This document shows positions 764 through 22,174 of a stretch of DNA of 64,000 nt, one piece after another. Under the pieces are notes generated by a model, which ran no database searches, had not been told where the DNA came from, and saw nothing but the letters and a program-made list of their open reading frames with translations. Source of the DNA: a virus; the IMG/VR virus record IMGVR_UViG_3300031420_000003, positions 96,001-160,000 of that record; one strand, 5' to 3'. The position numbers were made by a program, and so were the translations under genes. Each line of letters opens with the position of its first letter. The stretch's first letter is position 1.

Positions 764-3700
764 ATGGCGACGGAAACCCCGGCCCAGTTTGACGGTACGT
801 TGAAAGTCTCGACGTTCCCCAACCGTTTCAACACGGTTATTCCGCCGGAAGGCCCTTTCTACCGCACCGGGCTGGTTATCACCGATTTAAATGATGTCCC
901 GCTTATCGAGGGCATGGACTATTACCTCGGCTACTATTACAAAGAAGCCGCTGAGGCATTCCAAGCCGCTGTGTTCGGCGGGATAATGTTGCTGAACCAC
1001 GACGCCATTAAATACAGCATTTACGCTGTGGGGCGTGACTACCGTGTGCCACAGAGCGAAATCGGTAAGTGGCTGGTCAGCAGCGACATGAAAGACCCCC
1101 GTAACGAAGACTGGTCTGCGTTGATGCGCTTTGCGCCAACCATTCCGGCCATCGACCCCCCGCAAGATTTGGACGAAGCCATTGCGCGTGACGATATCGT
1201 TGCCGCCCTGAATGACATTCGTCTGGGTTTGATTAAGCGGGCAGGGGACATGGACGCCGCTTACGGTGACGTCACTGACCTTATCTACCAAACCGGTAAG
1301 AAAGTGTTTGATGACGGGATGTATCAGCACCACCTGCTGAAATCCCAAGGGCACTCGTACACCGCAGAAGACATTGGGGCCTTAAAGGTCACAGACAAAG
1401 CAGTGGATGCCACCCGGGCCTTTGGTCGCACCATCGACCAGCTTGTCACGTTAATGTCGACCACTGGCTTTCAGCAAAAGCACCTTGATTTGCTGATGCG
1501 TAACGACACGGCGTTTAACAACGTCTTTGGTCGTTTGCGTGTGCTGAACAACAACGTCCTGACCTACACCACGGCGAACAGTGACCACGTTGTCACGTTC
1601 AAAGGCCCGAACGTGTTGGTCTCCACCAAAAAGACCATGCGCTTTACAGCGGATTCCGGTAATGCCAATCCGGGACTGGCGGTTGAGATGTCAGCGGGCC
1701 TGAATACCCTGATGGTGCACTCCGGGCCGAACGCACTGGCACCGGTGTTCAACGGGGTGTATCTGATTACCCCGGACATGGTGGAATTGTACCTGCACGA
1801 GGTGAAACTCAAAGCCGCGAATGCGTACATGTCCTCCACCGAAACCGTTAAGGTCTACGGGTCAGGCAAGTCCTACGCGCCGTTCCGTCTGGAAGCCAAC
1901 CTGCCTGAAGCCGCCGTGGGTGTACGGGGCCTGATCAAGGTGACCTCCAACCGCACCACGCTCAGCGAAGGGTACGCTATCTCTCAGGCCGGGATTACCG
2001 CTATGCGGGATTTGCTGGGCAACTACGTGGATGACGCCTACACCATCAACGGCAAGGGCTTTGATGCTACCCAGACGCTGACATTAACTGCAACGGACGT
2101 GGGTGTTGATAAGATGCAGAACACTGCACCTGTCGACAAGCCCGTGACCAAAGCGTTGACCTCGGCGGTGGCGAACAAGTCCCTCACCAACCACACGCAC
2201 ACCTTGGCAGATGTGACCGATGTACCGTACGCCAGTTCCTCAGCCGCGGGTCTGGTGCTGCTGTGGGACATTATCGATGCGAGTACCGATCGGGTGGTGA
2301 CGGCACGTCAAGGTTACCTGTTTGAAAAGGCCTTGGCGGATTTAGAAAGCAAAGCCAACGGTTTGATTCCGGCGTGGGCAGTGATTGGGGCGTCGTACGG
2401 TAACTTAGGATTCCTGCCTATCCCTGCGTTGGGTAACTACGAAGGGTACGGCAAGAACAACAGCTACTACTACGGGGCGATGCGCTTTGAGGGTGACAAG
2501 CTGTATATCCTGCGCAACGGCACCGATGGGCTAACCGACCAGCACATCTATTACGCCTACGGCACGCTCAACGAAGACAACACCCTGACCAACGTGCAGC
2601 AGACCACCCAACGCTATCAGCCCGCAGGGATGACCGCAAAATACCCGGGTGTGACACTGAAGGCCGTTGTGGTGCCCGGCAATGATTTCATTCTTTGTCT
2701 GGGCAGTGACAATGCGTATTACTTGGTGGACATGGCCGGCACGGCAGACCATAACCGCCACCTCAATGTGGTACGGGTCACGTTCCCGTCTATCACGGAT
2801 GTTGCAGGCGCGAGCACAGCACTGGTGCCGGTCGGTGAGACGGATGACATTGTGGTGTACGGCAGCAAGGTGTATCTGCTGCGTACGCGCTTGGCCAATG
2901 ACAGCTACCGGGTTGCACTGGCGTCGGTGTCATTGAATGCGTTTGGTGGTCAAGACATTGCCTTTGCCATGGAAACCCTGAACGGGATGAAGGGTGTAGC
3001 GGGGTCGTGGTTACTGCTGCGGGCAGAAGGGGCGTATGACCCGGACAATGCCAATACCGATCGGGTGGCCTATATGCCGGCTTCGGCTGCGGCGATTTGG
3101 ACGGTGGGCAAGAATCTGGTGCATGGCCCGGCGTGTAACCGTGCACTGGGGTTGCAGGATGAAGTGCTGCGAGTGGGCATGAACCCCACGCTGTGGCTCG
3201 CCAAAGCCACGGAGTCAGTCGGCTTTAGCAACTGGTACACATCGTACACTTTGGACTTTGACACACTCACCGTGGCACTGGAGCGCCCTGAGATATTCCC
3301 GTTACAGTTCTTGGACACCGGCCCGCAGTACAAAACCGGTACCGATCTTATCACGGCGAAATACCCAGCGAAGTGGACAGGGACACAGGCGAATGCCCGT
3401 GCGTACGTTGCGCACCAAGGCACGACGGTTGCCGTGTTGTCAGCCGAAGGTGACCGAGACACCCCGATCCGTGTGTCAACCATGTCAACGCCGGACGGCG
3501 ATGATTACTACGACTCACTGGCGGCGGATGTCTTGGGTGTACCTGCGGCAGGGTCAGTGGTGCGCCTCGACCAAGGACGTGGTTCGGTCTATGCCTCCGG
3601 GATGGCCTACCCGCTGTTCTTTGGCGGTGACTCGAAAGCCATCTGGTTAACCGGGGTGAAAGATGCCCTGGCAGTTGAGGTGGTGTACTCCACGGATACC

Positions 3701-5851
3701 GATTACGGCGTGCCGGGTTACGGTGGATTTGGCCCAACCAACAACCGTCGGGAAATCACCCCCGAGGCGTATGCGGCAATGTCGCAGTTGGCGATGGTCA
3801 AAGTCAGCAACACCGACAAAGGCACCCTGAACGGCTGCTTCTTCACGAAAGCGGAAACCGTGCAGTACAAGAACGTGGCCGGTAACCCGAACTTCACCGC
3901 AGATAAGCTGACCCTGAACGATACCGAGTGGGCGAAAGTCCGCAGTATCTTACTCGGTAATGCCCCGGCAGGTGCAGCCAACGGGTACGCCTCTGAACGT
4001 CTGATGGCCGCTGACCAAATCGGCAAGCTGTATGTCGGCCTGTGGGGCTTTGCTATCGGTACCCAGCAGCAGCTTTTCTTGGGACAAGCCACGGCACAGC
4101 GCTTAGTGAATGGTGTGAATAAAATCGACCATTACTACTTTGTGATGTACCCGAGTGTCTCCAACGGACAGCTCGCGTTCAGCTCTACCACGGTGCAGCT
4201 TCTGAGCTTCCACAACGACTTGGATTACAACATCGCCAACGTCGGGCTGGACTTCAGTTACAGTGGTAAGCCACGTCGCTTTGGTCAACCGCAGTTGATT
4301 TCCACGGACGGGCAGAAGTTTGCCCTGATGCTCCCAATGGTGCTGCGGATTGCACAGGTGGGTAATGCAGCCGGTCTTAACTACGCCGCGGTGTTAACCC
4401 TCTCGGGCAACCAGTGGGCGAAGACCTCAGCCACGGTGTACACCGACAACCCGACGTACCAACCGAATACGTGGGTGTGGGTGAAGGACCTGAATGCGAT
4501 GGTGCGGTCGTACTTCAAACTCGACCCGGTGTTCGCCTCGGGGGATGCCTACGCCATTGCGGACTTCATGGCCAAGCCGCTTGACACTTCGGTCACCAGT
4601 CAACCGGTGGTGTTGGCCGGTGTGAAAACCGCAGAAGGGTGGGTGCTGTATCTGACAGAGGACGAGCGGTTATTCATTAACTCGCAAGAATACCTGTTAG
4701 ACCAGTACAGCATCGACTTCTCCAGTGCGTTCAGTGACTACCGTAACCAGACCTTCTATTTCCACGCAGAAGTCTACCCAGACGAGGGGACGTTTAAAGC
4801 ACGGTACCGTGTCAGTACGACGCGTTACCCTGACAGCGACAACCTGCTTTATATTGGCTATGTCAAAACCGACAGCAGCCGAATCGTTGAGGAAAACATT
4901 CTCCCGGTGAAACGACTGGGTGATGTACGACAACTGATGGAACACGAAGGGGTGGGCTACAGTCACGGATCGAATGTGGGTCGTGAGCTGGCTGAGTCTC
5001 CACTGGGTCTGCTCGAACCTTTACCGATTGCTACCTCCGGTAATGGGTTTGTGGGGCAGTCTGCGTTGTCAGCAGCAATTGGCACGCTCTTGAGTCGCCC
5101 ACTGATTAACCGGTATGTGCCGGCACAACAGGCGTGGTACTCGGGTGCGGTCTTGCCTGAGCTGTTCTGGGCACCGGCTCGTGCGGTTGCAGTGACGTCT
5201 GCGGAGAACCCGGATGCGAACACGTTGGGGTTAATCTGGATTGACATCTATCAGCGGTCGATTCCGAACTTCGGCACCTTTGGCACCAAGTTCAAAGTGA
5301 CAACCACCGGCGGGACGTTACGCATTCGGTTTGCAGTGGATGACATGTGCCACATTTATATCGACGGTGTACGGGTTGCCTCGGGTATCACGTCAGGCGG
5401 GGCTAACCAGTTGGCTACCCAAGACTTCCCGGTGTCAAACGGACAGCACACGGTAGCGATTGAAGTCATTCAGGCAGGTACCGCAGGTGGCACCATCTGC
5501 CACATTGCGTTTATTGCCTACGACTGGAACGGCACCACTGCCCGTGAACTGACGCGCTCCAGCGGTACGTCGGTTGTGGCCTTCACCTCAGACCAAGGTA
5601 CAGCGTCCGGTAACTTGGGCGTGTTGGAGACCATTTCACACGTGTATGTTCCGGTCACCGACAACACTGCGGTTGTGACGGTGGTTGCGCCAGAAATCAG
5701 TTATGCCCCGCCATTTATTGAACGGGCTAACGGTTCTAACCGCGAAGTCGTTGTTGCCTCGAAGTTCTTTGGGCCAGATGGGAAGCTTGTTACGCTCGGT
5801 GAGGTAACGGTCAATCTTATGTTAATCCCAACGAGTAATTTGTCGTCTTAA
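764..5851 (+). CDS. Large tail fibre/baseplate protein (1695 aa)
   Basis: GGGAG RBS; fibre-type motifs HTHTLADV and ASSSAAGLVLL; C-terminal VDDMCHIYIDG..GQHTVAIEV resembles a PA14/galactose-binding-like domain. Confidence 0.75.
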   Translation: MATETPAQFDGTLKVSTFPNRFNTVIPPEGPFYRTGLVITDLNDVPLIEGMDYYLGYYYKEAAEAFQAAVFGGIMLLNHDAIKYSIYAVGRDYRVPQSEIGKWLVSSDMKDPRNEDWSALMRFAPTIPAIDPPQDLDEAIARDDIVAALNDIRLGLIKRAGDMDAAYGDVTDLIYQTGKKVFDDGMYQHHLLKSQGHSYTAEDIGALKVTDKAVDATRAFGRTIDQLVTLMSTTGFQQKHLDLLMRNDTAFNNVFGRLRVLNNNVLTYTTANSDHVVTFKGPNVLVSTKKTMRFTADSGNANPGLAVEMSAGLNTLMVHSGPNALAPVFNGVYLITPDMVELYLHEVKLKAANAYMSSTETVKVYGSGKSYAPFRLEANLPEAAVGVRGLIKVTSNRTTLSEGYAISQAGITAMRDLLGNYVDDAYTINGKGFDATQTLTLTATDVGVDKMQNTAPVDKPVTKALTSAVANKSLTNHTHTLADVTDVPYASSSAAGLVLLWDIIDASTDRVVTARQGYLFEKALADLESKANGLIPAWAVIGASYGNLGFLPIPALGNYEGYGKNNSYYYGAMRFEGDKLYILRNGTDGLTDQHIYYAYGTLNEDNTLTNVQQTTQRYQPAGMTAKYPGVTLKAVVVPGNDFILCLGSDNAYYLVDMAGTADHNRHLNVVRVTFPSITDVAGASTALVPVGETDDIVVYGSKVYLLRTRLANDSYRVALASVSLNAFGGQDIAFAMETLNGMKGVAGSWLLLRAEGAYDPDNANTDRVAYMPASAAAIWTVGKNLVHGPACNRALGLQDEVLRVGMNPTLWLAKATESVGFSNWYTSYTLDFDTLTVALERPEIFPLQFLDTGPQYKTGTDLITAKYPAKWTGTQANARAYVAHQGTTVAVLSAEGDRDTPIRVSTMSTPDGDDYYDSLAADVLGVPAAGSVVRLDQGRGSVYASGMAYPLFFGGDSKAIWLTGVKDALAVEVVYSTDTDYGVPGYGGFGPTNNRREITPEAYAAMSQLAMVKVSNTDKGTLNGCFFTKAETVQYKNVAGNPNFTADKLTLNDTEWAKVRSILLGNAPAGAANGYASERLMAADQIGKLYVGLWGFAIGTQQQLFLGQATAQRLVNGVNKIDHYYFVMYPSVSNGQLAFSSTTVQLLSFHNDLDYNIANVGLDFSYSGKPRRFGQPQLISTDGQKFALMLPMVLRIAQVGNAAGLNYAAVLTLSGNQWAKTSATVYTDNPTYQPNTWVWVKDLNAMVRSYFKLDPVFASGDAYAIADFMAKPLDTSVTSQPVVLAGVKTAEGWVLYLTEDERLFINSQEYLLDQYSIDFSSAFSDYRNQTFYFHAEVYPDEGTFKARYRVSTTRYPDSDNLLYIGYVKTDSSRIVEENILPVKRLGDVRQLMEHEGVGYSHGSNVGRELAESPLGLLEPLPIATSGNGFVGQSALSAAIGTLLSRPLINRYVPAQQAWYSGAVLPELFWAPARAVAVTSAENPDANTLGLIWIDIYQRSIPNFGTFGTKFKVTTTGGTLRIRFAVDDMCHIYIDGVRVASGITSGGANQLATQDFPVSNGQHTVAIEVIQAGTAGGTICHIAFIAYDWNGTTARELTRSSGTSVVAFTSDQGTASGNLGVLETISHVYVPVTDNTAVVTVVAPEISYAPPFIERANGSNREVVVASKFFGPDGKLVTLGEVTVNLMLIPTSNLSS

Positions 5852-7158: not shown

Positions 7159-7548
7159 ATGACGATATCACTTAAAGAGATAAGTGCCCGTCTTGACCGA
7201 GTCCAAGCAGCAACCGGTGGGTCTGTAGATGGGCAGGTGAACGCCAAAGTTCACAATGCTAACCTACTGGCTGGTCAGCCTGATACGTGGGCCCGTTGTA
7301 ACGGGTCGTGCAGTTGGACGTGTTCATCGGGGTGTAGTCATGGTTGCTCTAGCTGCTCAGGTAGCTGTAGCGGCGTGTGTACAGGTAACTGTTCGGGTTC
7401 GTGTTCTGGTGGTTGTGGGGGAGGATGTTCATCCTCGTGTTCTGGTGGGTGCTCTAGCGGGTGTTCGGGGACTTGCGGTGCAAGCTGTTCAAGTGGCTGT
7501 GCCGGTACCTGTAGCAGCAACTGCACATCAGGCTGCAGCAGCCCTTAG
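7159..7548 (+). CDS. Cxxx-repeat Cys-rich protein 1 (putative radical SAM substrate)
   Basis: AAGGAAAGG RBS; 46-aa leader then 21 Cys in Cxxx periodicity (one Cxx), core almost only C/S/G/T/N/A. Confidence 0.85.
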   Translation: MTISLKEISARLDRVQAATGGSVDGQVNAKVHNANLLAGQPDTWARCNGSCSWTCSSGCSHGCSSCSGSCSGVCTGNCSGSCSGGCGGGCSSSCSGGCSSGCSGTCGASCSSGCAGTCSSNCTSGCSSP

Positions 7549-7556
7549 GAGCAGAG

Positions 7557-7985
7557 ATGGCGATTTCATTAAAAACGGTGCAGGCTCGTGTTCAGAACAT
7601 TGAGAACACTGCACTTAAAACTGAAGCAGGCGTGCAAAACTACATTGCAGGCCGCACTACCAATAATGCTGATTTACTCAACGGCTTCACACCGGCGGCA
7701 CTGCACTGTAATGGCTCTTGTAGCTGGACGTGCGGTAACGGATGTTCCGGTGGCTGTACGGGTAACTGTTCGTCAGGATGTTCTTCATCATGTTCGGGCA
7801 ACTGCTCATCAAGCTGTACAGGCGGTTGTACTGGCAGCTGTGGCGGTAACTGCGGGGGCGGCTGCTCCGGTGGATGTTCTGGTACTTGCTCGGGTAACTG
7901 TTCAGGGAAATGTTCTGGCGGGTGCTCAGGAAGTTGTGGTGCGAGCTGTGGCGGAAGTTGTGGAGCAGGCTGTTCTGGACCGTAG
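7557..7985 (+). CDS. Cxxx-repeat Cys-rich protein 2 (putative radical SAM substrate)
   Basis: AGGAG RBS; 50-aa leader then 23 perfect Cxxx units starting CNGSCSWTC. Confidence 0.85.
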   Translation: MAISLKTVQARVQNIENTALKTEAGVQNYIAGRTTNNADLLNGFTPAALHCNGSCSWTCGNGCSGGCTGNCSSGCSSSCSGNCSSSCTGGCTGSCGGNCGGGCSGGCSGTCSGNCSGKCSGGCSGSCGASCGGSCGAGCSGP

Positions 7986-7994
7986 GAGTAGGCT

Positions 7995-8204
7995 ATGGCA
8001 GTAAGCTTGAAAGACATCGGTAACCGCGTCTCGAACGTCGAACGCTATATCACCACGGGCCAAGCGGTTGACTATATTGCCAACCGGGGAACGTGTAACA
8101 ACACCAACAACTTGGGTGGGATTCGTGCTGGCGCGTATAACTGCGGCGGAACCTGTAGCTGGAGTAGCTCAGGCGGGGCGAAATCAGTCACCTTCCCGAG
8201 TTAA
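7995..8204 (+). CDS. Short paralog of the Cxxx-repeat proteins
   Basis: AGGAG RBS; same leader (MAVSLK..R..N..NLGG) and CGGTCSW, but no long repeat. Confidence 0.8.
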   Translation: MAVSLKDIGNRVSNVERYITTGQAVDYIANRGTCNNTNNLGGIRAGAYNCGGTCSWSSSGGAKSVTFPS

Positions 8205-12553: not shown

Positions 12554-12584
12554 GGTGCCCTTCGGGGCACCCTTTCTTCTTTTT
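12554..12584 (+). terminator. Rho-independent terminator ending the tail/radical SAM operon
   Basis: GGTGCCC-TTCG-GGGCACC then T-rich tract. Confidence 0.85.
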
Positions 12585-14812: not shown

Positions 14813-15325
14813 ATGGCTACTAAAACCCCACAGGAGCAGTTGGTCGAGCTGTTTAACGCTGCGAACACTGGTCTTGCTACCCCATTGGCTGTTGCGGATG
14901 TGGACTTTGGTGCAGTTGCTGCGGGTGCGGAAGGTGCAGAGAAAAACTCTACGCTGACCATCACTGCAAAAGCCGCTTCCATCAACTTCTCCGGTTCCAA
15001 AGCCCTGACGTACAACCGTCTGGCACTGGCACTGGGTGCGGTGAGCGTTGATGATGACGTGGCAAACTGGGACACCGATGCTGAGGTGCTTGCGCATTTC
15101 AACACGCTGGTTCAGCAGACCCACGCGGACGATGTGTTTGCCGCAGGTGACATCACTGTTGCCTCTGCAGCGAATGCTGACGATAACACTAAAACGGACG
15201 TTACTGTTACCATCAATGCAGGCCACATGAAGTTCCTGCCTGGTGAAGCTGTGAAATGGACTATCGCCAAAGCCAAAACTGATCTCTCCGGTACTAACGG
15301 AGACTTGGACGGCTTTAACAGCTAA
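14813..15325 (+). CDS. Virion structural protein, paralog family (single domain)
   Basis: LVELFNAAN, LTYNRL and C-terminal DLSGTNGDLDGF shared with downstream paralogs. Confidence 0.65.
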   Translation: MATKTPQEQLVELFNAANTGLATPLAVADVDFGAVAAGAEGAEKNSTLTITAKAASINFSGSKALTYNRLALALGAVSVDDDVANWDTDAEVLAHFNTLVQQTHADDVFAAGDITVASAANADDNTKTDVTVTINAGHMKFLPGEAVKWTIAKAKTDLSGTNGDLDGFNS

Positions 15326-17333: not shown

Positions 17334-18773
17334 TTATTTGAATCCGTCTAATTTACCGTTTGTGTTTTTCAATTGCACAGGCGGTACGACTGTTATCTGC
17401 AAGGCAGGCGGGGTCAGAACCCCTGCCGGTGCGCGACCCCGTACGCTGTTCGGTGAGTAGACTGGCGCACTGTCAGTGGCGATCAGATACGGTTTACTAA
17501 TCGAACGGTCAATTGTCCCTCTCACGCCCTCCATGCGAAGCGGGATATTGGGGTCACGGTTTTGGTCAATAAAGAGCGTAGGTTTACGCAGGCTTTGTGT
17601 TACGGTGCCACGGATTTCCGTCAGCGCTAACGTTACGGTACTCAGGTCAAACAACCGCAAGAAAGGTCGCCAGCCATAATTGCCGGTTTTCTGTAAATTC
17701 GATGACGACTGGGCATTCATCGAGGTGAACCATACCGTGGAGCCGTCAGCGGCAGAGGTGGTTTGAAACAGAAACCCAGTGCTGTAGTCAAGCGGGGGTG
17801 TCGCGGTGTGCAGACCGTCCCAATCGCCTTTGGTGTACGTTCCCGGGAAGACACGTCCCAACAGCTGATACAACTCCCCGTCTTGTGCCCGCTGGCCGAT
17901 AATCGGGTCGCTTGCTGCGAACGTCGGTAGGCGTGGGACAAAGCCCACGGCACCTTCTGGCGAGTCCAACGCGATGTAGCGATTCTGCTTCGTGAGCGGA
18001 CTGCCCACAGGTGGCCATTTACCTGTACCGTCGCTGTCGTAAACCGAGCCACGTTCATACAGCGCTTTCCACGAGGTCGTACCTAAGTGGTAGCTTGGGA
18101 AGAACAAGAACTGGCCTTTATAGGCGAACTTCATCCAGAACAGGTTCGGGTTCACCACCGGTGTACTGCCCGCGTCATCCGAGAGCACCGCATTGAAGAT
18201 GTCCAGAGCAGCGACCATCTCATCGGCTCTGACCACCCCAAAGTAGCCCGCATCCATATCCCCAATCAGCATCGCCTTGCGACCCGGTCCGGAGTTCGGG
18301 TAGTTACCCGCCGGTAGCCGCGACCACTGTACGCTCAGGCTGCCTGTAAAGGCCGGAGAGGTGCTGGCGATTGTCAGGGTCACCGGTGTAGGGGTGTACC
18401 CGTTTGACAACGCTGTGGAGCCGTTGGCGAGGTCTGTGGCCTGTAAGCCTAACCCGTACTGCTCGTTCAGTGCCGGTAACAGGTCGGCATAGGTCTTCGA
18501 GCTGCCGGCGGCATCAAACACCACGGTAATACCATTGAAATATTTACCAATGTCCAGTCTGTCGTAGAAGAATTCGCGACGCCCTACAAACCCAGCCCCA
18601 CTCTTTCCGTTTAACACCACCCGGGAATTACGCCCGGAGGTGCCAAGGGAGGTCGTGAAAGGCCCGCCCAGCACCAATACATTATCGGGGCTGAGAGGGT
18701 AAGGTAGATTGGGGTTGTCGCGGGTTACTTGTCGGCAGAGTAGCATCAGCGACGAGTAGCTGTAAGGCCCCAT
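17334..18773 (-). CDS. Virion protein: paralog anchor domain + GPG domain (module copy 2, gene A)
   Basis: RDNPNLP..GRN..YDRLD..LNEQYGL; GPG..GD..GYFG; C-terminal TNGKLDGF. Confidence 0.65.
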   Translation of the reverse strand: MGPYSYSSLMLLCRQVTRDNPNLPYPLSPDNVLVLGGPFTTSLGTSGRNSRVVLNGKSGAGFVGRREFFYDRLDIGKYFNGITVVFDAAGSSKTYADLLPALNEQYGLGLQATDLANGSTALSNGYTPTPVTLTIASTSPAFTGSLSVQWSRLPAGNYPNSGPGRKAMLIGDMDAGYFGVVRADEMVAALDIFNAVLSDDAGSTPVVNPNLFWMKFAYKGQFLFFPSYHLGTTSWKALYERGSVYDSDGTGKWPPVGSPLTKQNRYIALDSPEGAVGFVPRLPTFAASDPIIGQRAQDGELYQLLGRVFPGTYTKGDWDGLHTATPPLDYSTGFLFQTTSAADGSTVWFTSMNAQSSSNLQKTGNYGWRPFLRLFDLSTVTLALTEIRGTVTQSLRKPTLFIDQNRDPNIPLRMEGVRGTIDRSISKPYLIATDSAPVYSPNSVRGRAPAGVLTPPALQITVVPPVQLKNTNGKLDGFK

Positions 18774-20755: not shown

Positions 20756-22174
20756 TTAGAAATCGTCAAGGTCGCCATTGGTTGCTGATAAATCAACCTT
20801 GGACGGCGTGTACATCTCGACTTTGAACGGAATGGGTCGGAAGTCGATGGTTTTAGGGGCACCCGGTATCACCGGTTTCACGTACAGCGATTGCGTGATA
20901 TCAAAGGTTACCGGCAAGAAGTCGATAGTCTTCGGATTACCCGGTTGGACTGGGGCGACCCGCAGCGACTGGTCGACGCTAAACGGAATGGTCTTAAGAC
21001 TCATGTCCATCTGACCAAACATGCTGTCTAGTCCCAACAACGTGGTCGAGGTGTCAACCAGTTCGAGCACCGGGAACCAGTAATAGTTGGCACCGGTTTG
21101 GTTTTTCAGTATGTTTGTCCAACTCTGAAGCGCAAGCGTTGCCATCTTACTTATCGTGGTGTTGGTCACCACGCTGTTTTGGAACATGCACCAAAGCGTC
21201 CACTGGGAGTTGGTCAGGCTCGCCCACTTACCGTTGTTCAGGTAGTTGAACATCTGCACTTCACTACCCTGGTATTCGCTCGCCGCTATTATTCCAGTGG
21301 CAGCGGAGAACGGGTCTGCACCGGCACTTGGTAGACGAATTCGGTAATAAAACTTACCTTCACTGGCGGTACCGTGCGACAGAATACGCAGCTGGTTAAC
21401 CGTTGGGGCAGTTGGGAACTTACCGTTGTCGTCCGTGCCGTAGACCAACCCTTCGTTGTACAAGGTGTTCCATGTGACGTTGTACCCCACCGGGGTAATC
21501 GGCAGGTAAAGCACTTGGCTGTTGTAGAAGAACTTGTACCACCCTTCGGTGCCGGTATACAGCGTCGGCTTTGTACCTTTAAGGAAGGCTGCTGCGATGA
21601 GTTCATCGTGAGTAAACAAATCAGAGGCAGCCACGGTACCGAAGTAACCGGCCAAGTTATCCCCGACCAACAGCGTTTTGGGACCGGGCCCCGACTGCGG
21701 GTAATAACCGGCTGATTTGATTTGGTACTTAAACACCAGATTCCCGATAAACGCCGGCGATGCGGATGCGATAGCAAGCGTCAGCGTTTGTGCGGTAGCA
21801 TTGGGTGCCGTGACGGGTGCTGTGGGGGTTGACAAGTCCCCAGCGCCGAGGTTAAAGCCCAGCGCATCATTAAGGTACGTTAACATAGCCTGCTGTGTCG
21901 CCACACTCGACTTCATGTAGACGGTCGGGGTGAAGTTAATCAGCTGACTTAAGTCAATGCGGTCGTAATAGAGGGTGACTCTACCTTGTAAGCCAGACCC
22001 CGGGTACGCGGTAAACTCCACACGCGTGTTGCGCCCGTTGAGGCTGGTTGAGATGGCCACTGGTGTTTTGGTTAACGCGGCGTTACTCGCGGACAGCGGC
22101 ACAGGAAGTCCCGGGTTGTCCCGATTCACCTGATCGTAAATCAGCTGCAGCGCCGCCTTTGAATAGAATTGCAT
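20756..22174 (-). CDS. Virion protein: paralog anchor domain + GPG domain (module copy 1, gene A)
   Basis: NRDNPGLP..GRNTRV..YYDRID; GPGPKTLLVGD..GYFG; C-terminal DLSATNGDLDDF. Confidence 0.65.
   Translation of the reverse strand: MQFYSKAALQLIYDQVNRDNPGLPVPLSASNAALTKTPVAISTSLNGRNTRVEFTAYPGSGLQGRVTLYYDRIDLSQLINFTPTVYMKSSVATQQAMLTYLNDALGFNLGAGDLSTPTAPVTAPNATAQTLTLAIASASPAFIGNLVFKYQIKSAGYYPQSGPGPKTLLVGDNLAGYFGTVAASDLFTHDELIAAAFLKGTKPTLYTGTEGWYKFFYNSQVLYLPITPVGYNVTWNTLYNEGLVYGTDDNGKFPTAPTVNQLRILSHGTASEGKFYYRIRLPSAGADPFSAATGIIAASEYQGSEVQMFNYLNNGKWASLTNSQWTLWCMFQNSVVTNTTISKMATLALQSWTNILKNQTGANYYWFPVLELVDTSTTLLGLDSMFGQMDMSLKTIPFSVDQSLRVAPVQPGNPKTIDFLPVTFDITQSLYVKPVIPGAPKTIDFRPIPFKVEMYTPSKVDLSATNGDLDDF

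Follow-up and report, generated by a model that had tools for sequence, protein, structure and literature searches.

The window analysed here is a stretch of 64 000 nucleotides from a virus (positions 96 001 to 160 000 of the IMG/VR record IMGVR_UViG_3300031420_000003). It contains three adjacent small genes, called A, B and C below, followed on the same strand by genes for two radical S-adenosylmethionine (SAM) enzymes (table 1). The three proteins share an N-terminal module, and in A and B this module is followed by a core in which cysteine (Cys) recurs at every fourth residue (CXXX). Judged from the sequences, A, B and C are probably paralogous substrates, or substrate-like partners, of a radical SAM maturation system encoded by the phage. 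We read A and B as multiply Cys-crosslinked substrates because both match the CXXX-repeat target model TIGR04114, because the nearest enzyme model is TIGR04115, and because the Crp and HXS systems offer precedents; the crosslinking chemistry is inferred by analogy.

Sequence features of A, B and C

All three proteins match phrog_6085, a family with no assigned function (E-values of 8.2e-28 for A, 1.2e-34 for B and 1.3e-24 for C), and none has a match in Pfam. A purine-rich ribosome-binding site precedes each gene. The proteins start with MTISLK (A), MAISLK (B) or MAVSLK (C), continue with R-[LV]-x-x-[VI]-[QE], carry an N-x-x-x-L-x-G-type motif, and end the module, or leader, with CNGSCSW (A and B) or CGGTCSW (C). 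An earlier note on this DNA, made from the sequence alone, had pointed out these patterns and had counted the Cys residues; both are as it described them. There are 21 Cys in A, with one spacing of three (a CXX slip) and the rest of four, and 23 in B, where all 22 spacings are four. C has three, one in the leader (residue 34) and two that correspond to the first two of the core (residues 50 and 54). The cores of A and B consist almost wholly of Cys, Ser and Gly; Thr and Asn are few, about 25 per cent of the residues are Cys, and there is not a single Asp or Glu.

These features are conserved between phages. The Cys count of A is 21 in all 23 A sequences, though the distribution of CXXX and CXX spacings differs from phage to phage. 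B orthologues have 20–23 Cys, and C is found in each of 22 related loci, with two to four Cys.

The earlier description of the start of the module as heptad-like is fair for residues 5–15, where all three proteins have hydrophobic residues at L5, I/V8, L/V12 and V/I15. An AlphaFold2 monomer model of B (45 aligned sequences) predicts helices at residues 5–19, 23–35 and 46–49, with a pLDDT (predicted local distance difference test) of 55–73 by block and about 70 for helix 5–19. The mean pLDDT is 46 overall, and the core is unfolded in the model (pLDDT below 50 from residue 53), as expected for a substrate that needs modification. The predicted N-terminal helices fit a coiled coil and the leader of a peptide that is ribosomally synthesized and then modified post-translationally (RiPP) equally well.

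The two residues before the first core Cys are A-R in A, L-H in B and Y-N in C, not Gly-Gly, Gly-Ala or Gly-Ser. This agrees with the remark in the earlier note that A and B have no typical double-Gly cleavage site there, and C39 peptidase (PF03412) is also absent from the 248-kb phage genome, with terminal repeats, to which the window belongs. On reading the sequences, without a predictor, we saw no signal peptide or peptidoglycan-binding domain in the three proteins, and by eye no prohead-protease site of the A-x-E form given in table 1 of PMC5694885.

Overlapping open reading frames (ORFs) are present in other frames and on the opposite strand of the trio region. Compared with Erwinia phage Wellington, the numbers of substitutions at codon positions 1/2/3 are 8/4/41 for A, 4/6/37 for B and 3/1/9 for C. 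The ratio of non-synonymous to synonymous divergence (dN/dS) is 0.037 in the core of A and 0.044 in that of B, with leader values of 0.19 and 0.15, respectively. The predominance of third-position substitutions and the low dN/dS of the cores identify the Cys-rich frame as the coding frame. The trio genes are real and are under strong purifying selection. Tandem Repeats Finder reports just two weak arrays of 12 nucleotides (scores 39 and 42); since the DNA repeats have diverged, the CXXX period is held by selection on the protein and not by recent slippage. In A, the synonymous divergence from Wellington is about threefold higher in the core (window positions 7297–7545; dS 0.99) than in the leader (0.32), which may be due to exchange between repeats or to a local mutation bias.

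Association with radical SAM enzymes

By its sequence, the window comes from a jumbo Erwinia phage of the SPN3US-like kind; the trio region is about 91 per cent identical to that of the Erwinia phages Wellington and Kwan. In the SPN3US-like group, the trio and the radical SAM enzymes always co-occur. The genes are arranged in the order 1695-amino-acid protein, 401-amino-acid protein, A, B, C, 308-amino-acid protein, radical SAM protein 2, radical SAM/SPASM-type protein 1, 182-amino-acid protein, DUF4376 protein, terminator and endolysin, and three gene pairs of the unit overlap. The trio and enzyme unit has the same order in all 10 GenBank loci (Kwan, SPN3US, CR5, EarlPhillipIV, Caitlin, Asesino, phiEaH2, Huxley, ChrisDB and Phobos) and in 12 of 12 IMG/VR loci of the group; several of these 22 loci are the same phage present in both collections. 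In the window and in 22 of the 22 related loci, targets and maturase are on the same strand and at most 2.1 kb apart. With tblastn, the B leader is found in 62 phage records and the SPASM-type enzyme in 65, including phages of Erwinia, Salmonella, Cronobacter, Escherichia and Proteus.

The 248-kb genome has exactly these two radical SAM genes, and in both enzymes the CX3CX2C motif starts within 30 residues of the N-terminus. Protein 1 has the Cys pattern of SPASM maturases (CX3CX2C plus about seven or eight C-terminal Cys), and the Pfam SPASM model is not among its matches. The Cys residues invariant in 13 of 13 sequences are 13/17/20, then 276, 284, 294, 338, 341, 347, 350 and 375, and finally 404/406/409; protein 2 has just three C-terminal Cys. 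The group includes phages with enzymes of no more than 59–67 per cent identity.

A and B reach 24.9 and 25.2 bits, respectively, on TIGR04114 and pass its cut-off of 20, and C has no match to this model. The best NCBIfam model for protein 1 is TIGR04115 (113.7 bits, 1.3e-32, model positions 7–341 of 359; 109.6 bits in the genome-wide search). It is followed by PapB (NF047865; 102.3 bits, 3e-29, cut-off of 340 not reached). The Crp-type model TIGR04463 gives 51.5 bits and does not reach its cut-off of 525; it stands among lesser matches that include the geopeptide maturase, HxsB, QhpD (TIGR03906, 5e-17, far below cut-off), CcpM and others. The two phage enzymes match HxsC (8.4e-12) and HxsB (1.5e-17) weakly, far under the Hxs cut-offs.

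The two other conserved proteins of the unit gave little in comparisons. The AlphaFold2 model of the 308-amino-acid protein has a pLDDT of 81.7 and a predicted TM-score of 0.76; Pfam searches with 12 orthologues gave nothing under an E-value of 0.0085, and the best E-value in a profile search of the PDB was 0.55. The same PDB search with the 182-amino-acid protein found no match (best E-value 0.18). The ESM Atlas yields low-confidence leads only for both proteins, with scores of at most 0.80 for the smaller one.

Two metagenomic phages of the group (L017 3542–4453 and L022 3543–4454) have A and B separated by an extra copy of the small radical SAM gene, about 41 per cent identical to the window enzyme. 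Elsewhere, two unrelated viral contigs (L023 4075–4543 and L024 6477–6942) code for paired proteins of 68–80 amino acids with 17–18 Cys, mostly as CxxC. These pairs lie directly upstream of a radical SAM gene 24 per cent identical to the SPASM-type enzyme of the window, and this looks like another viral Cys-repeat system.

Searches for the module and its likeness to a tail-fibre motif

A hidden Markov model of 33 leaders, run on the phage's own genome translated in all six frames, finds A, B and C only (E-values of 5.5e-21 to 3.6e-27); the next match among 4687 frames has an E-value of 1.4. A profile of the three leaders gave 21 matches (E-value at most 0.001) in 1.84 billion representative proteins. 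Thirteen of the 21 were examined, and no fibre protein carrying the whole module is among them: 12 are short proteins of the A/B/C type (50–210 amino acids), three of these with C-terminal extensions, and the remaining one, P0019, is a repeat protein of 622 amino acids that aligns to leader positions 1–24 only. P0019 has five copies of the segment FKAITSRLDEIETFIAKTN aligned to these positions; it is probably a coiled coil and its likeness generic. A tblastn search with leader residues 20–57 (E-value at most 10) in 50 697 phage records returned 63 records of the same group and two chance matches, which we set aside; these are in two Mycobacterium phage records (E-value 7), on the strand opposite the tape-measure gene. 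A homologue search with B residues 1–57 gave no candidate, and the best match of the leader profile in the PDB (PARP14 macrodomain, E-value 0.16) is at chance level. These searches indicate that the module is private to this phage group and is part of no fibre protein.

One of the extended proteins, P0004 (210 amino acids), consists of a C-type protein and a 140-amino-acid extension. It was considered as a natural fusion and set aside as a possible chimera; the extension is unmatched in the 50 697 phage records and in IMG/VR. P0012, P0014 and P0015 also extend past the usual stop, P0015 into an apparent solute-binding protein. All four may be assembly chimeras or frameshifts.

The earlier note had likened the N-x-x-x-L-x-G-type motifs of the leaders to NAD.LDG, which it took to be common in phage tail fibres. 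It is: a scan of IMG/VR viral contigs for one codon version of NAD.LDG gave at least 82 matches, and 8 of 10 motif proteins sampled match PHROG ‘tail fiber protein’ families, the other two matching nothing. Among the matches listed, 73 of 82 lie in open frames of at least 150 amino acids, many of them longer than 1000, and flanks that had not been selected are conserved (S-T-T-x-V-x-N-L before NAD.LDG and x-H-A-S-x-F after it). NADLLDG-x-H-A occurs twice within about 40 residues in a fibre-like protein of L079 (216–2024). Since the motif is doubled in some fibre-like proteins, it acts as a repeatable module and not as a terminal anchor. No PDB chain matching fibre segments with the motif was found.

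When the profile of 33 leaders was compared with 38 fibre segments by hhalign, leader columns 36–48 aligned to NADlLDG~has~~ over 13 columns, with a score of 14.5, a P-value of 0.0061 and a probability of 6 per cent. Shuffled leader columns give a mean score of 7.6 (standard deviation 1.9), and 2 of 150 shuffles reach 14.5. The match covers positions that were not used for picking the fibre set, among them a Q following the Gly, a Ser at +4 and, at +6, a residue that is either aromatic or aliphatic. The shared N-L-N-A-D-x-L-D-G-x-H-A-S-x-F pattern is clearest in B orthologues, for example NADLFGGQNPSYY in L012, to be compared with NADFLDGQHGSYY in a fibre-like protein of L058. However, the fibre proteins are mostly of several hundred to about 1800 amino acids, with the motif anywhere and sometimes twice, whereas the trio proteins have 69–142 amino acids; the flanks differ, no homology was found beyond the motif, and the trio has no match to a tail-fibre family. 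Strict NAD.LDG occurs nowhere in this phage genome, A, B and C included, and a relaxed form of it occurs only in A, B, C and one 30-amino-acid ORF.

The likeness to fibres proposed in the earlier note is thus partly supported, within the short motif and not for the module as a whole. On these alignments we regard the likeness, noticed after the fact, as real but short and weakly significant: it is a lead, and not evidence of homology or docking. Sharing this one short motif is a reason to test for a virion destination, not a demonstration of one. Three virion proteins have the C-terminal tags TNGDLDGFNS, TNGKLDGFK and TNGDLDDF (window positions 14813–15325 (+), 17334–18773 (−) and 20756–22174 (−)); these were considered as versions of NAD.LDG and set aside, being one residue shorter.

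Genomic setting and annotation

Upstream of the unit lie genes for baseplate or tail-fibre candidates and downstream of it the endolysin gene; a single terminator closes the unit. Its upstream neighbour, the gene for the 1695-amino-acid protein, is syntenic with SPN3US_0168, whose product gp168 is a tail protein and a baseplate or tail-fibre candidate according to the consulted parts of PMC5105663 and PMC5694885. The 401-amino-acid protein has weak matches to coiled-coil families over residues 225–385, and several phages, Kwan, SPN3US and CR5 among them, have its orthologue annotated as ‘putative virion structural protein’.

A conserved stem-loop lies between the 401-amino-acid gene and gene A. 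None of 200 shuffled sequences folds as well. The pairing is kept across phage groups despite changes in the stem sequence, with the same TATGG loop in 7 of 7 sequences. The stem-loop could serve as a terminator, as a processing site or to confer stability. The hairpin proper of the terminator-like element at the end of the unit occupies positions 12554–12571, and the endolysin gene is the next one downstream.

Table 1. Features of the trio and enzyme unit in the window.
Feature	Position	Strand	Remarks
Virion protein, 1695 amino acids, SPN3US gp168 homologue	764..5851	+	phrog_7449, E-value 0; phrog_2163 ‘virion structural protein’
Virion structural protein, 401 amino acids	5890..7095	+	phrog_2163, 1.3e-99; C-terminal half coiled-coil-like
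Conserved stem-loop	7105..7138	+	RNA fold −26.5 kcal/mol, z −5.0
Protein A, 129 amino acids	7159..7548	+	Module residues 1–46, then CXXX core with 21 Cys
NANLLAG, A residues 33–39	7255..7275	+	Fibre-like motif
Protein B, 142 amino acids	7557..7985	+	Module residues 1–50, then CXXX core with 23 Cys
NADLLNG, B residues 37–43	7665..7685	+	Copy nearest to the fibre motif
Protein C, 69 amino acids	7995..8204	+	N-terminal module, CGGTCSW, then 13-residue Cys-free tail
NTNNLGG, C residues 36–42	8100..8120	+	
Conserved protein, 308 amino acids	8217..9143	+	phrog_8030; 17-nucleotide overlap with next gene
Radical SAM protein 2, 294 amino acids	9127..10011	+	PF04055, 1.5e-14; CX3CX2C at 23/27/30
Radical SAM/SPASM-type protein 1, 465 amino acids	10024..11421	+	PF04055
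Conserved protein, 182 amino acids	11381..11929	+	phrog_7988; overlaps both neighbours
DUF4376 protein, 213 amino acids	11908..12549	+	PF14301, 2e-6, 28.7 bits (cut-off 25); phrog_8169; final gene of the unit
Terminator-like hairpin and T-rich tail	12554..12581	+	7-bp stem (six G-C pairs), then CTTTCTTCTT

In most public records, A and B are unannotated, or antisense or out-of-frame ORFs are called in their place. Such ORFs are found over A and B in Kwan, SPN3US, Huxley, Phobos and others (L001 7457–7786 and 7841–8218; L002 4570–4905; L008 4220–4543 and 4664–4957; L010 4144–4644 and 4702–4965). A, B and C are all absent from the annotation of SPN3US (JN641803), where the three genes lie at positions corresponding to L002 4094–4486, 4497–4901 and 4917–5123.

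Comparison with known systems

The nearest family pair, TIGR04114/TIGR04115, was defined in silico. The phage unit resembles it in the Ser/Gly-rich CXXX repeats, in the match of A and B to the target model and in the best model of the enzyme. It differs in having a second radical SAM enzyme, three paralogous targets, a location in the virion gene block and an enzyme score below cut-off, and its targets carry a module of 50 amino acids that is private to this phage group.

PapB of the ranthipeptides and QhpD, with its target QhpC, are likewise SPASM-type systems in which several Cys form thioethers in C-x3-acceptor repeats. QhpC, a subunit of an enzyme, has its leader cleaved off. In these systems the acceptor is Asp or Glu, whereas the phage cores have neither.

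The Crp system of Methanococcus voltae is close in its layout. In the consulted part of PMC13692751, the Cys-rich CrpA and the Cys-poorer CrpB have 47 N-terminal residues in common, ranthionine links are put into the protein CrpA by the SPASM enzyme CrpC, and a helper role is proposed for CrpB. As in the phages, a Cys-rich repeat protein is thus accompanied by a Cys-poor paralogue with a shared N-terminus; the SPASM enzyme acts on a protein rather than on a short peptide, as its phage counterpart would. However, CrpA has repeats of 17 residues with C-x-x-Q/D, whereas the phage period is four residues without Asp or Glu, and CrpC has an N-terminal RiPP recognition element (RRE), for which the phage enzyme has no room.

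In the HXS defence system, as described in the consulted part of PMC13128918, two radical SAM enzymes and a small protein mature a repeat-bearing protein effector. The phage unit also has two radical SAM enzymes, with their weak HxsB and HxsC matches, and a protein of short tandem repeats, but HXS is a bacterial system.

Proposed mechanism and alternative explanations

If A, B and C belong to a maturation system, the shared module of 46–50 amino acids, with its two predicted helices and the N-x-x-x-L-x-G loop, would be the enzyme recognition element for all three, and the 308- or the 182-amino-acid protein would perhaps assist its recognition. The SPASM-type enzyme would work along the CXXX core of A and B and link many of the 21–23 Cys covalently, in the likeliest case by a thioether to a neighbouring residue. 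Formed in the reducing cytoplasm, the product would be stiff and redox-proof, a rod rich in Ser and Gly. C, which has the module and the first CxGxCSW knot and no repeat, may be an adaptor or chaperone and not a product, comparable to what was proposed for CrpB.

Several observations weigh against this reading. Protein 1 falls far short of the TIGR04115 cut-off of 350 and is therefore no member of the curated family of CXXX-repeat maturases. No RRE was found in the searches of the unit, and the CX3CX2C motif of protein 1 is so near the N-terminus that there is no room for an N-terminal one. As the A and B cores are without Asp and Glu, the acceptor rule of PapB, QhpD and Crp (Cys to Asp, Glu or Gln) cannot hold as such. 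The core is more conserved than the leader in A and B, the reverse of most RiPP natural products. The model of the 308-amino-acid protein has no fold match: the best Foldseek E-value in the PDB is 0.019, the best VIA-align Z-score is 4.6, with rows that barely cover model residues 100–190, and BFVD gives only the Asesino orthologue. This protein is thus not identifiable as a peptidase, RRE or chaperone, and may or may not be a leader peptidase. Finally, in the literature searched, with subscription journals largely outside it, we found no experimental work on these genes and no published chemistry for the CXXX-repeat family.

The earlier note had suggested a heterotrimeric fibre. In such a model the modules would be retained, A, B and C would assemble 1:1:1 through the helices and the motif, the crosslinked cores would form a thin fibre or whisker in the baseplate or fibre apparatus of the virion, and C would be its cap. 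The position of the unit directly behind two virion proteins of the gp168 family and its end in a DUF4376 gene are in favour of this, as are the constancy, order and close spacing of the three genes, the very low dN/dS of the cores, the fixed Cys number of A, the alignment of the leaders to NADxLDG-x-H-A-S-x-F (P-value 0.006; 2 of 150 shuffles), the predicted helix with hydrophobic residues at 5, 8, 12 and 15, and the failure to find a leader peptidase. But the likeness extends over 13 columns only, with an hhalign probability of 6 per cent, no long protein with the module was found, and the phage's own other proteins have neither motif nor module. Since C is without a core, a three-stranded core is impossible, and a RiPP leader would just as normally contain an amphipathic helix. 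As the trio is unannotated in SPN3US, published virion proteomes of this phage were searched without it and could not have reported it. We consider the heterotrimer unlikely. That A and B are thioether-stapled rods of about 85–90 residues, with the modules retained, joined with C and built into the baseplate or fibre apparatus, is a version to which we also give a low probability.

The trio could instead be a classical RiPP, with the leader cut by a protease of the host or the phage and the crosslinked peptides, set free on lysis or active within the cell, acting as diffusible antibacterial, signalling or anti-defence agents. The layout of leader and core, the presence of several precursors with one leader beside SPASM-type radical SAM genes, and nearest models that are all peptide maturases would be expected of it, and lysis would remove the need for an exporter. 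Yet the unit has no recognizable protease or exporter, the genome has no C39 peptidase, no recognizable cleavage site precedes the core, and the conservation of core over leader noted above runs the wrong way; C, with its Cys-free tail of 13 residues, is kept in every phage and is hard to explain as a product, and the place in the structural module is kept across phages with enzymes as divergent as 59–67 per cent identity. A diffusible product is accordingly improbable in our judgement. An HxsA-like effector in the envelope or inside the cell, for example in superinfection exclusion or counter-defence, would account for the combination of two radical SAM genes, small proteins and repeat proteins and would follow the HXS precedent and the HxsC and HxsB matches. 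These scores are far under the Hxs cut-offs, however, neither a signal peptide nor a peptidoglycan-binding domain was seen by eye in A, B and C, and the unit is in the late structural region, so that we regard such an effector as very unlikely. It is extremely improbable that the proteins are unmodified, metallothionein-like binders of metal or iron–sulfur clusters, with the radical SAM enzymes linked to cofactor supply. The Cys content of the cores in a Ser/Gly background would suit metal binding, which the Crp authors also considered for modified CrpA in the consulted part of PMC13692751, but the strict CXXX period, together with the match to TIGR04114, speaks for the substrate of an enzyme, and the 50-amino-acid module shared with the Cys-poor C would be left unexplained.

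Significance

Radical SAM maturation of Cys-repeat targets is known as a kind. New to the literature searched, in which few subscription journals are included, are its phage setting, the three paralogues with their private module, the presence of two enzymes and the location in a block of virion genes. For Cys-rich proteins, in contrast to short peptides, the first demonstration of radical SAM crosslinking is very recent and comes from an archaeon. A related system is fixed, among virion genes, in a whole group of giant phages whose hosts are Salmonella, Erwinia, Cronobacter, Escherichia and Proteus; SPN3US, one of them, is a genetic model. The trio is missing or miscalled in most public records; with the three genes entered in the databases, it could be learned at little cost whether a virion part uses RiPP chemistry. 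If A and B are indeed stapled rods built into the virion, they would be the first structural element of a virus to come from RiPP-type radical SAM crosslinking, and would represent a route to disulfide-like stiffness inside the reducing cytoplasm.

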